A DNA stretch of 64,000 nt. It comes from Shigella phage ESh26. The notes beneath the pieces were generated by a model that saw nothing but the letters and a program-made list of their open reading frames with translations, was not told where the DNA came from and did no database searches. Positions 61 to 53,796 of the stretch are shown here, in pieces; positions within the stretch are counted from its first letter, which is position 1; each line of letters starts with the position of its first letter. A program made the translations under genes and the position numbers. The DNA is taken from sequence record ON528736. One strand, written 5' to 3'.

Positions 61-225
61 TTACTCTTCTTTTTCTTTAGATTCCTCTTTTTTCTTTTTA
101 GGAATCTGTTCAGGACCTTTATTTACTACAGCGCCTGACGTTGTTCCAGTGGAGATATTTTCAGGATTACCACCTGAATCTCCAGCTACCATATCTTCTT
201 TGATAAATTCTTTATATGTTTTCAT
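61..225 (-). CDS. small protein at T4 61.1 position, N-terminus MKTYKEFIKE resembles internal-protein leader
   Basis: 54-codon minus ORF (ATG 223-225, stop 61-63), below ORF-track cutoff; Lys/Glu-rich tail. Confidence 0.45.
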   Translation of the reverse strand: MKTYKEFIKEDMVAGDSGGNPENISTGTTSGAVVNKGPEQIPKKKKEESKEKEE

Positions 226-10334: not shown

Positions 10335-10338
10335 TGCT

Positions 10339-10575
10339 TTAAATTTCTATTGTACGACGCGATATAACGGACTTGCCATCTTTATTTGTGGTTTTGATAA
10401 TCGCATGAAATGCGAGCTGGTGCGGGTAAACTAATCGTTGGAATTCTTTTTGGAATTCTATTTGTTTATCTTCCGGGAGGTCAAAAACCAGTTGGGTAGA
10501 AGACAGACCATATGTTTGTTTTAGATTTTCGAATATTAGAAAAGCTTCGGTAAACTGAATCTCTGATTGTGTCAT
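10339..10575 (-). CDS. hypothetical protein between regA and gene 43
   Basis: 78 aa from ATG 10573-10575 with AAGG SD. Confidence 0.4.
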   Translation of the reverse strand: MTQSEIQFTEAFLIFENLKQTYGLSSTQLVFDLPEDKQIEFQKEFQRLVYPHQLAFHAIIKTTNKDGKSVISRRTIEI

Positions 10576-27079: not shown

Positions 27080-27448
27080 TTAATCCAAAATATTATTAGG
27101 CATTGGTTGAACACTCGCAAGTTCTTTAAAGAACTCAGTAGAGTCAGGTAATTTAACCATTTCCGGAGCATGCTTGCTAAATTTGTGTTTACAATGACGG
27201 CATTTATATTCAAGTTCCGGTTTACGCCAGTTAATCAATTGAACCTGTTCAGTACCGCATTCAGGACAATTAGGAACGTTTTTAGAAGCCCTTTCGCGAC
27301 GATCAACCATAGCCATAATAGCATCCCAGGCTGGAGGTTTAAAATCTAAATCGTCAGTAACTAACAGTCCTTTATCAAACCCAGCGCATGGAGTCCATTC
27401 AGGAAAATCTGAAGCTTCGGCAATATCTTCTAATAGACGCTTTTTCAT
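27080..27448 (-). CDS. zinc-ribbon protein
   Basis: 122 aa, CPECG...CRHCKH. Confidence 0.45.
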
Positions 27449-43213: not shown

Positions 43214-43746
43214 TTAATATTACAGCAGTAGTGTACAGTGTCAATATGGACACTATAAATCTTATCCATATCAGGAGATTTAACAGGCTCATCAATTATA
43301 TACAAAATTCGAGAAAGCGATAAACCTCTGAACTTGCTTCCTTTATTACCGATAAAACTACGGACAGAATCAGTAAATAAGCGGAATCGAATATCATCAC
43401 TAGAATAACGAGAAAATTCTTTTTTAATGTGGCCTGCAGAAATTTTAGCGTAAGCTGAAGTATTAGAAAGAACAATAACTGTTCCACCGTCATACAGCCA
43501 ATTAGCAGCAAAGTTAGTCACAGCAGTTGATTTACCAGATTGACGTCCACCATCTAGTCGAAGTGTGCAATACTGTTTGAGTAAGTCTTCAAATGGTGGG
43601 ATATAATCGTTTTTACAAATTTCTTCTACTCTAGCATCAGAATGGTGTGTAAAAGCATTCATCAGGGATAGATAAGGGCCAGTTAAAAATGTTCTCATTT
43701 TATTCTCTCTAAATTTGGGCCATTCCATGGCACATGAATTGTCCAT
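43159..43746 (-). CDS. P-loop protein
   Basis: 195 aa, GGRQSGKST Walker A-like. Confidence 0.45.
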   Translation of the reverse strand: MDNSCAMEWPKFRENKMRTFLTGPYLSLMNAFTHHSDARVEEICKNDYIPPFEDLLKQYCTLRLDGGRQSGKSTAVTNFAANWLYDGGTVIVLSNTSAYAKISAGHIKKEFSRYSSDDIRFRLFTDSVRSFIGNKGSKFRGLSLSRILYIIDEPVKSPDMDKIYSVHIDTVHYCCNIKCCIGGITRPQFFVIGMQ

Positions 43747-43851
43747 TTCTGTATTTACCCATTACCGCACTCAGGCTCGACCTTATTACAGGTTGGCGGG
43801 AATCCCTCATAGAATCATGAGGTCCAGCTTGTTCCCATATTTCTTATTTGC

Positions 43852-44329
43852 TTATTTGAATGATTTGACGTACTGAATAGAACCTTTACTATTCACGAAA
43901 GCGATTTTACCATTTTTGTTATACATGGTAGCAGTACGCTGATAGCCATAAGTTTGCTTACCAGATTGATAACCAACTAATGCAAAATTATCTTCACCCA
44001 TTTTATTCTGCTTCGCGCGGATACGTTCATGACCGTGCGCCATAAGAACCTTAGCATCGCCAGTTGAAATTGATCTACGAGTTTTTTCATCTTCAACTGT
44101 ACTAACAAAGTCGTCAAATGAATCAAATTTAGCATGAGATTTATTATACAGTTTTCCATCTACTGCATAATTATATCCCTGTACATCCATCTCAACTTCT
44201 GTACCATCATCCAATACAGCAGTGATTTTTTGACCTTTTTTAAATTTCAAAAGATCAGTAAAAGATTCAGCAATAATTTGAGAATTAATAGCTGGCTGCT
44301 TCAGTGATAAATTCTTGATATGTTTTCAT
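43852..44329 (-). pseudogene. internal-protein-like gene with capsid-targeting leader out of frame with its body
   Basis: ATG 44327-44329 encodes MKTYQEFITEAASY then TAA at 44285-44287; 132-codon body 43852-44250 is in +1 frame with no ATG; late promoter and SD upstream. Confidence 0.45.
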
Positions 44330-44338
44330 GTGTTTCCT

Positions 44339-44755
44339 TTAAATGTAAATATTTTTACCGTAGTATTTATACCAGTGTGGCTTCATTAAAATTTTTTCAT
44401 CGAGTCGTTGTTGACTCAATTTAATAGCAGATTTGCATGGATTATAATCATTTTTCCATTCTGCTGGAATATCGCTGATGTCAGGAACTTCAGTATCTTT
44501 TATACTAAACCCACGTTTTAAGCATTCCGTTATAATGTCTGATTGACGCTTTCGCAAAAATTCTAACTTATCGTAAAAGAACGTAACATGACCAGAACCT
44601 AAAATAAACTCAGAAGATATTTTAAAATCTTTAACCCGCTTACCATTTGCCACGTGTTTACGAACTATACCAAAAACACGTGGCAATTCACGGTATTCTG
44701 CGATTAAATGTTGATCAGCAAGTTCAGATACTAAAGTCAAATTAATACGAGTCAT
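44339..44755 (-). CDS. denV: endonuclease V (pyrimidine dimer glycosylase)
   Basis: 138 aa from ATG 44753-44755, [17 protein letters not shown]...; track ORF starts 12 codons upstream. Confidence 0.85.
44364..44371 (-). promoter_or_regulatory. late promoter TATAAATA (gp55-dependent)
   Basis: exact TATAAATA on minus strand about 35 nt upstream of ATG 44329. Confidence 0.6.
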
Positions 44756-44778
44756 TTTATCCCTCCAAGTAACTGTGA

Positions 44779-44811
44779 ATAATACTATCACAATTCTAGG
44801 AGAAAGTAAAC
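44779..44811 (-). promoter_or_regulatory. T4-type early promoter (denV)
   Basis: GTTTAC -35, GATAGTATTA -10. Confidence 0.6.
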
Positions 44812-44815
44812 AACT

Positions 44816-48751: not shown

Positions 48752-49069
48752 TTATTTCATATTATTGAAATATTCTTCTGCGATTTCGTCGTTATCATGG
48801 TAAACTTTAGAAGACAGTTTAACATAACCTTCAGCTGTGAACATATTAATCACAACTTTTACAGTATACCACTGACCATCTTCATTACCCATTACTGCGT
48901 AAGTTTCAAACATCGGATGGTCAGGACCGATAACTTTAATATCATTCACTGTACGACCGAAATCTTCTGAAACGCATTTCATAAAGAAGTTGAACAGTTC
49001 GCCGTAATTATCCATTTCATTCTCCAAGTTGTTTTTCTGTATCAGTAGTTGATAGTTGTATAGTACCAT
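48752..49069 (-). CDS. hypothetical protein
   Basis: 105 aa, early promoter upstream. Confidence 0.45.
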   Translation of the reverse strand: MVLYNYQLLIQKNNLENEMDNYGELFNFFMKCVSEDFGRTVNDIKVIGPDHPMFETYAVMGNEDGQWYTVKVVINMFTAEGYVKLSSKVYHDNDEIAEEYFNNMK

Positions 49070-53228: not shown

Positions 53229-53462
53229 TTATTTTTTACGAAAAATTGATTTATTTTCTGCTGCCCATTTTTCAATAACTGCAGCAGGACCAGTAACAAC
53301 AATTTTATCACCGTAATCTTCTGCGGCGAGTTGACCGAAATTATCTAATGCATCACGAAGAACTCCATAAGGCATTTCACCCATTTTATCTTTCTTGCCA
53401 GTGTAAATAAACTCAACTTTTACATCAGAAGATTCAGCGATAAACTCTTTGAAAGTTTTCAT
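53229..53462 (-). CDS. internal protein (capsid-targeting leader)
   Basis: 77 aa from ATG 53460-53462, MKTFKEFIAESS; early promoter upstream. Confidence 0.55.
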   Translation of the reverse strand: MKTFKEFIAESSDVKVEFIYTGKKDKMGEMPYGVLRDALDNFGQLAAEDYGDKIVVTGPAAVIEKWAAENKSIFRKK

Positions 53463-53538: not shown

Positions 53539-53796
53539 TTATTTTAAATCTTCTAATCGTTTCTTCATCTTAGAACCATTTTTAGCAATTTCTCCTGCAT
53601 CGGAGCATAACGCTAAAAGTGCTTTAACTTTAGTTTGGTCTCCTTTAAAAGATGAAGGATCGACTGCAGCAGCAAGTTCTTTAATACGAGAGAAAAGACG
53701 CTCAGCTTCAGCTAAAGCCATTCCAAGCTTTACTTCCATACCGTGAGAAGATTCAGTGATAGTAGTTTTTGTAGCAAACTCTTTGAAAGTTTTCAT
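53539..53796 (-). CDS. internal protein (capsid-targeting leader)
   Basis: 85 aa MKTFKEFATKTTITESS; early promoter upstream. Confidence 0.55.
   Translation of the reverse strand: MKTFKEFATKTTITESSHGMEVKLGMALAEAERLFSRIKELAAAVDPSSFKGDQTKVKALLALCSDAGEIAKNGSKMKKRLEDLK

Follow-up and report, generated by a model that had tools for sequence, protein, structure and literature searches.

A 4-nt tandem duplication splits the internal-protein gene ip4 in the sequence of Shigella phage ESh26

The DNA considered here, referred to as the window, is the whole analyzed stretch of 64,000 nucleotides from the sequence record of Shigella phage ESh26 (ON528736). Sequence comparison places it in a T4-like phage, within Tequatrovirus. 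In the phage collection it comes closest to Escherichia phage ECP2301 (97.9% identity across 20 kb), with no identical record. On the minus strand, the region of interest carries, in order, nudE, e, denV, a disrupted ip4, and vs.8 (Table 1). The annotations of ime09, Kha5h, ECP2301, and T-01 likewise have ip4 between denV and vs.8. In T4, the annotated order is e, ipIII, ipII, denV, vs.8, with ipIII and ipII lying between e and denV. An earlier note, made from the sequence alone, had remarked that the internal-protein locus is placed unlike that of T4. This is correct, but the placement is not peculiar to the ESh26 genome, as the relatives that carry ip4 share it. The gene also falls within the variable territory of internal-protein genes, which comprises the e-denV region and the surroundings of gene 57B.

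Relative to T4, ip4 is an extra cassette that follows the denV stop codon (TAA, 44341-44339). In T4, this stop codon is joined straight to GGGAACAAC..., a sequence that the window picks up again only at position 43836. The two flanks of the cassette are alike, with AGGAAACAC at its start (44330-44338) and GGGAACAAG just past its end (43828-43836); T4 has the single junction TAA GGGAACAAC. The short sequences that bracket the cassette may be the homology used in gain or loss of ip4. The adjoining DenV is 97.8% identical to that of ime09 and aligns in one in-frame tblastn HSP.

Several features of the neighborhood vary among these phages. The gap between e and denV (44756-44815) is a 60-nt spacer with no internal-protein gene, an arrangement shared with ECP2301; in ime09, Kha5h, and T-01, a 93-aa internal head protein overlaps the end of e. 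The nudix hydrolase gene nudE encodes 151 aa in the window versus 49 aa as annotated in ECP2301 (L001 456-605), and thus the ECP2301 record appears to have a disruption or error of its own. On the other side of ip4, vs.8 is split compared with T4. There, 8 additional nt (a CTTATAGAG CTTATAGAG repeat) join vs.8 to a 33-codon ORF lying upstream, for a product of 219 aa (T4 locus L006 2720-2918). In the window and in ime09, both of which lack the 8 nt, vs.8 is a gene of its own with 179 aa, and its ATG in the window is at 43698 (region 43698-43810, minus strand). The vs.8 split is a clade-wide polymorphism and is not specific to the window.

Two further internal-protein genes, both intact and both with leaders of the capsid-targeting type, follow closely after 57B as transcription runs, at an ipI-type locus. 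The one encoding 77 aa has no match among the annotated ime09 proteins. MKTYKEFIKE, the start of gene 61.1, likewise resembles a capsid-targeting sequence and has I-K-E as its gp21 motif, though the gene is located in the early 61-41 region.

Table 1. Features of the ip4 locus and other elements of the window discussed in the text
Feature	Position	Strand	Basis or remark
Gene 61.1, 54 aa, PHROG 1823	61-225	-	100% identical to ime09 61.1
In-frame tandem duplication CAACCA	21672		relative to ime09
In-frame tandem duplication TTGATCGCA	36132		relative to ime09; imperfect copy of adjoining CTGATCGC
33-codon ORF upstream of vs.8, MRDSRQPVIRSS...	43810-43709	-	
ip4 cassette relative to T4	43837..44338	-	alignments to T4 and T4 annotation
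Ip4 body, AINSQIIAESFTDLL...YVKSFK, 146 codons + stop	43852..44292	-	+1 frame relative to leader
Predicted peptides of the Ip4 body (examples), SFTDLLK and ITAVLDDGTEVEMDVQGYNYAVDGK			
Leader mini-ORF MKTYQEFITEAASY + TAA, 14 codons	44285..44329	-	translation; alignment to intact homologues
Perfect 4-nt tandem duplication, CAGC CAGC	44291..44298	-	alignment to relatives; gene positions 32-39
Capsid-targeting sequence MKTYQEFITE	44329-44300	-	codons 1-10; I-T-E gp21 motif
Shine-Dalgarno core AGGA	44335..44338	-	5 nt ahead of ATG; the same in every relative aligned
denV (endonuclease V, 138 aa)	44339..44755	-	adjoins ip4 upstream; ORF list; denV in annotated relatives
TATAAATA, match to T4 late-promoter -10 consensus	44364..44371	-	candidate only; in denV 3' end
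e (lysozyme)	45310-44816	-	ORF list
In-frame tandem duplication TTCATT	47584		relative to ime09
Internal-protein gene, MKTFKEFIAE..., 77 aa, PHROG 8111	53229-53462	-	intact; capsid-targeting-type leader
Internal-protein gene, MKTFKEFATK..., 85 aa, PHROG 3499	53539-53796	-	intact; 100% identical to ime09 Ip5

The ip4 gene opens with a Shine-Dalgarno sequence, an ATG (44329-44327), and a leader that ends after 14 codons at a TAA (44287-44285); the coordinates that the earlier note gives are correct. The first 10 residues form an N-terminal targeting sequence of the MKTYQEFIxE type with L/I-X-E at its end, as expected of an internal protein. In an internal protein, the targeting sequence should also be in frame with the body, and here it is not. 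Codons 13 and 14 of the leader, together with the stop, are out-of-frame products of a duplication. The remainder of the protein, residues 12 to 157 of intact Ip4, is contiguous as encoded only in a second frame, which is open from 44325 to its stop at 43854-43852 and lies at +1 (a 4-nt shift) to the frame of the leader. The ORF listed in this frame has 132 codons and begins at TTG 44250; an exact-sequence lookup of its 132-aa product returned no record. The earlier note was right that the only long ORF downstream is in another frame, but it is not devoid of ATG codons: there is none close to the start of the body ORF, but the 21st codon of the ORF as listed is an in-frame ATG, at 44190.

The lesion that separates the two frames is a perfect tandem duplication of CAGC. 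The window reads GAAG CAGC CAGC TATT, where alignment shows GAAG CAGC TATT in ECP2301, Kha5h, and T-01, each of which has one CAGC and an intact 474-nt ORF of 157 codons annotated as ipIV, Ip4, or "internal virion protein." The duplication starts in codon 11, right past the predicted gp21 cleavage site. At 44298-44291, it falls within 44285-44300, where the joint of the frames had been proposed from the sequence. The 1-nt indel envisaged in the same proposal was not borne out, as alignment to relatives gives an insertion of 4 nt. When one CAGC is removed, the protein is 100% identical to ECP2301 Ip4, and the genes differ at three nucleotides, all synonymous. Given this identity and the absence of further decay in the gene, the event must be either very recent or an artifact.

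The duplicated allele was found in none of four public collections. A megablast search of 50,697 phage records with 81 nt spanning the junction gave no 81/81 match to the duplicated form and 306 full-length matches, the best of them 77/81, i.e., without the extra 4 nt. Each of the 306 has a single CAGC and an unbroken gene for 157 aa. Exact-pattern scans for the duplicated allele returned 0 matches in each of the viral, metagenome, and genome contig collections.

Repair of the frame leaves little doubt about the identity of the gene. The 157-aa product obtained by removal of 4 nt matches Pfam DUF7412 over positions 1-157 of 158 (E = 1e-95; 318.6 bits against a cutoff of 27) and PHROG 3155, "internal virion protein," over 1-157 of 157 (E = 1.8e-101). 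These end-to-end matches place the interpretation as a split gene far beyond chance. The likeness of the body to an internal-protein family, which the earlier note had offered as a check on its reading, is therefore clear (Ip4 / DUF7412 / PHROG 3155), and the coordinates, the family matches, and the intact ORF of the relatives agree that this is an internal-protein gene whose leader and body are split by a frameshift.

By tblastn, Ip4 has matches in 470 phage records, whose sources include Escherichia, Shigella, Klebsiella, and Salmonella. It is intact in 468 of these, with at least 80% of the protein covered, including T2, RB14, RB3, and AR1. Of 60 records sampled across the set, 58 have the gene whole and in a single piece. 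The family is small and resolves into 14 clusters at 90% identity, 12 of which comprise proteins of 156-160 aa; the other two are a 112-aa C-terminal fragment (the split allele from Logan discussed below) and a 184-aa variant. Ip4 (ipIV) of T2, RB14, RB32, AR1, ime09, Kha5h shares with ESh26 the denV-vs.8 locus, the Shine-Dalgarno sequence, the ATG, and the leader MKTYQEFITE. The DNA of such relatives is 98.5-96.5% identical to that of ESh26 over 751 nt (among the 40 best records listed), and the proteins are 96-100% identical once the duplication is repaired. Unlike ESh26, these phages are without the extra CAGC and have an unsplit 157-codon ORF. The AlphaFold2 model of the Ip4 body has a pLDDT of 73.6, and a search of PDB folds with this model gave no significant match (best E = 0.19, TM < 0.3). 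A match to the designed Kelch-like protein 7on6 (E = 1.4e-5, 39 residues) was set aside as compositional or repeat driven.

Ip4 resembles T4 IPI, IPII, and IPIII in its 10-residue N-terminal targeting sequence ending in L/I-X-E, its small size, its non-essential nature, and its location in the variable neighborhood of e and denV. It differs from them in having no sequence similarity past the leader, and in its position, as T4 ipII and ipIII lie between e and denV and ip4 lies after denV. Matches of Ip4 to other internal-protein PHROGs are either confined to the N terminus (residues 1-13 or 1-21) or weak (E = 0.007, residues 1-66). Repoila et al. (1994) are said to have given the original description of ip4 and of later ip genes.

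In T4, the first 10 residues of an internal protein are enough to direct it into the capsid, and L/I-X-E is the motif after which the prohead protease gp21 cleaves (PMC9026906). The canonical targeting sequence of Ip4 ends at residue 10, and the primary gp21 site is therefore expected between ITE and AA. The cut that the earlier note proposed, between IIAE and S in the rejoined protein, would thus not be the primary one. It is plausible as a second cut, however, as residues 18-20 of the family alignment form another L/I/M-x-E site (IAE followed by S in ESh26), with a near-invariant E and with I, L, or M two positions before it.

The late promoter assigned to ip4 in the earlier note is a candidate. 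The motif TATAAATA is indeed present at the end of denV, at 44371-44364, with 35 nt between it and the ATG of ip4. It occurs 10 times in the window versus 10.7 times expected by chance, and it is not conserved among ip4 carriers: ECP2301 and T-01 have it at this site, and Kha5h and ime09 have TACAAGTA there. The equivalent T4 site reads TACAAATA, and that part of T4 denV has no TATAAATA. Given the chance-level count and the absence from Kha5h and ime09, we regard the element as a motif match, which may work as a late promoter in ESh26. Two tandem copies of TATAAATA upstream of e (45344-45324), common to T4, could feed late transcription through the ip4 region. A scan for sigma-70 promoters and terminators returned nothing beyond shuffled expectation.

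We consider it probable that ip4 of ESh26 has been knocked out by a recent and genuine 4-bp tandem duplication, CAGC to CAGCCAGC. The same conclusion follows from weighing the options listed in the earlier note, among which a real inactivating frameshift is best supported. Two observations favor a real mutation: no other frame is lost in shared genes, and a 4-nt duplication outside a homopolymer is atypical of sequencing error. When 117 ime09 proteins were compared with the window by tblastn, all genes shared over their full length (~110) gave one in-frame HSP except Ip4. Two apparent exceptions were rejected. The two-frame match of e.8 reflects an N-terminally overextended annotation in ime09 (the window has GGAGA and an ATG at 49015), and the short match of nrdC.2 corresponds to a divergent yet intact 122-aa ORF. 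Among 46 indels relative to ime09, the one in ip4 alone is both not a multiple of 3 in length and within a conserved gene. In-frame small tandem duplications relative to ime09 occur at three places within otherwise conserved genes (Table 1), and from the sequences compared, small tandem duplication is a common natural mutational mode among these genomes. Two stretches, 10335-10561 (gene 43.1) and 27217-27417 (nrdC.2), are far more divergent than their surroundings, with 47% and 80% protein identity to ime09, respectively, and many small indels; they look like replaced variants rather than errors.

The main competitor to a genuine mutation is an artifact of sequencing, consensus calling, or assembly, in which case the true phage has one CAGC and an intact ip4. 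We rate this as distinctly less likely than a genuine duplication, though it deserves serious consideration. Across all collections searched, the duplicated allele occurs in no second record that could independently confirm its existence in nature, and a repaired gene that is perfect and undecayed, encoding a protein equal to ECP2301 Ip4, is just what a consensus or assembly error would be expected to look like. T-even DNA contains glucosyl-hydroxymethylcytosine, which disturbs some sequencing chemistries and could have done so here. In addition, the split ip4 allele seen in Logan raw reads is a +1 in an A/G run, which is typical of such errors. The ESh26 lesion, in contrast, cleanly duplicates 4 nt in tandem outside any homopolymer, unlike usual errors, and none of the other ~110 genes shared with ime09 is frameshifted in 64 kb, which argues that the assembly is not generally noisy. 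Moreover, perfect tandem duplications break ip4 independently in two other deposited genomes.

These other broken alleles are instructive. In Salmonella phage CF-SP2, a perfect 11-nt tandem duplication breaks the ip4 frame (L008 278-299), and in Klebsiella phage vB_Kte_K65PH164, a perfect 121-nt tandem duplication does so (L009 391-632). The Logan contig SRR23924977_48202 has the +1 in an A/G run (L007 1440-1460) and may be a read error. Each of the three is annotated as two separate small ORFs. They resemble the ESh26 allele in that the insertion is not a multiple of 3 and leaves an N-terminal fragment bearing the targeting sequence and a C-terminal ORF, and they differ from it in site, size, and phage genus, which indicates that the disruptions are independent.

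We find it very improbable that the split is functional, whether by +1 ribosomal frameshifting or by translation of the body, through reinitiation, as an unpackaged cytoplasmic protein. Some features would allow it. The body frame is open from 44325, such that a +1 slip anywhere in the 14 leader codons would restore the full protein, and the TAA stop could serve as a pause site. IPIII provided in the cytoplasm of the host is active even when stripped of its targeting sequence (PMC9391042), which implies that internal-protein bodies can work without the leader. However, the arrangement is present in no relative, as all 306 full-length DNA matches and 468 of the 470 tblastn matches run through this site in one frame, and it thus has no evolutionary conservation. 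There is also no slippery motif: in the sequence ...GCC AGC UAU UAA, tRNA-Tyr on UAU in the P-site would face AUU after a +1 slip, with no option for re-pairing in the new frame. RNA folding at the site is no better than that of shuffled sequence (z = +0.38), and no Rfam family matches above its gathering score, with SNORD116 and ES003 appearing as subthreshold chance matches. On the fold score, the null Rfam result, and the absence from relatives, a programmed frameshift or RNA element was rejected. The locus does share with the programmed +1 frameshifting of prfB two consecutive ORFs at +1, the first ended by a stop, but it is without the conservation, shift-prone P-site codon, positioned Shine-Dalgarno-like stimulator, and stable structure of that system. 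Reinitiation has similar difficulties, as no Shine-Dalgarno sequence precedes TTG 44250 or ATG 44190. Furthermore, injection serves to protect incoming DNA, and a protein made late cannot do this. Expression without head targeting, an option raised in the earlier note, is therefore unlikely, given a body that has neither a Shine-Dalgarno sequence nor a good start and the uselessness of a late, uninjected internal protein.

Least probable of all, and barely worth entertaining, is that the knockout is adaptive, with Ip4 being costly or sensed by a defense of the propagation host such that null mutants were selected; four independent disruptions in three genera (ESh26, CF-SP2, K65PH164, and Logan SRR23924977), three of the four by tandem duplication, speak for it, but the 58 of 60 sampled records with an intact gene and the 468 of 470 matches with at least 80% coverage fit neutral loss plus sequencing errors, and we know of no host system that senses Ip4. 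It is similarly far-fetched, if marginally less so, that the recurrent ip4 duplications in Tequatrovirus, Gelderlandvirus, and Jiaodavirus represent escape from a host system able to sense injected Ip4 or set off by it. If this were true, selected loss would make ip4 a double-edged anti-defense gene.

Returning to a genuine duplication as the favored reading, its consequences can be predicted from the sequence. The 4-nt duplication shifts ip4 by +1, such that initiation at the normal Shine-Dalgarno sequence and ATG yields only a 14-residue peptide consisting of the 10-residue targeting sequence plus AASY, and the 146-codon body is left in a different frame from the leader. The nearest start-like codon of the body, TTG 44250, is 35 nt past the leader stop. 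We infer that little or no Ip4 body is made, as there is no ribosome-binding site and TTG 44250 is the sole start-like codon nearby. Any body that was made would be without the targeting sequence, and thus would not be loaded into the prohead core, trimmed by gp21, or injected. With Ip4 neither packaged nor injected, ESh26 would be functionally Ip4 null.

What such a loss would cost the phage can be gauged from better-studied internal proteins. T4 Ip1, Ip2, and Ip3 are injected inhibitors of GmrSD type IV restriction enzymes, with a single enzyme variant blocked by each, and when ten further ip genes were assayed against GmrSD variants, no new inhibitory interactions emerged (PMC12373910). In experimentally evolved T4, ipIII was deleted in three of five lines, and the ability to infect ECOR17 was lost as a cost (PMC9391042). 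By analogy, loss of Ip4 would narrow the host range only on strains with the defense that Ip4 counters. Internal-protein genes are in general easily lost and are dispensable on laboratory hosts, and the loss should accordingly be neutral on the propagation host.

We conclude that the ESh26 locus is probably a frameshifted ip4, i.e., an isolate-specific loss of a known accessory gene, or possibly a sequencing error. The finding is an ordinary one, a frameshift in a known, dispensable accessory gene. For annotation, the locus is better labeled a disrupted ip4 (pseudogene) than a hypothetical protein of 132 aa with a TTG start. Provided that the mutation is genuine, ESh26 is a natural Ip4-null phage, and as the Ip4 of ECP2301 is identical but intact, the two phages form a pair that could be used to seek the host defense that Ip4 counters. 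The locus would also add one case in which a T4-like phage loses an accessory gene through a small tandem duplication.
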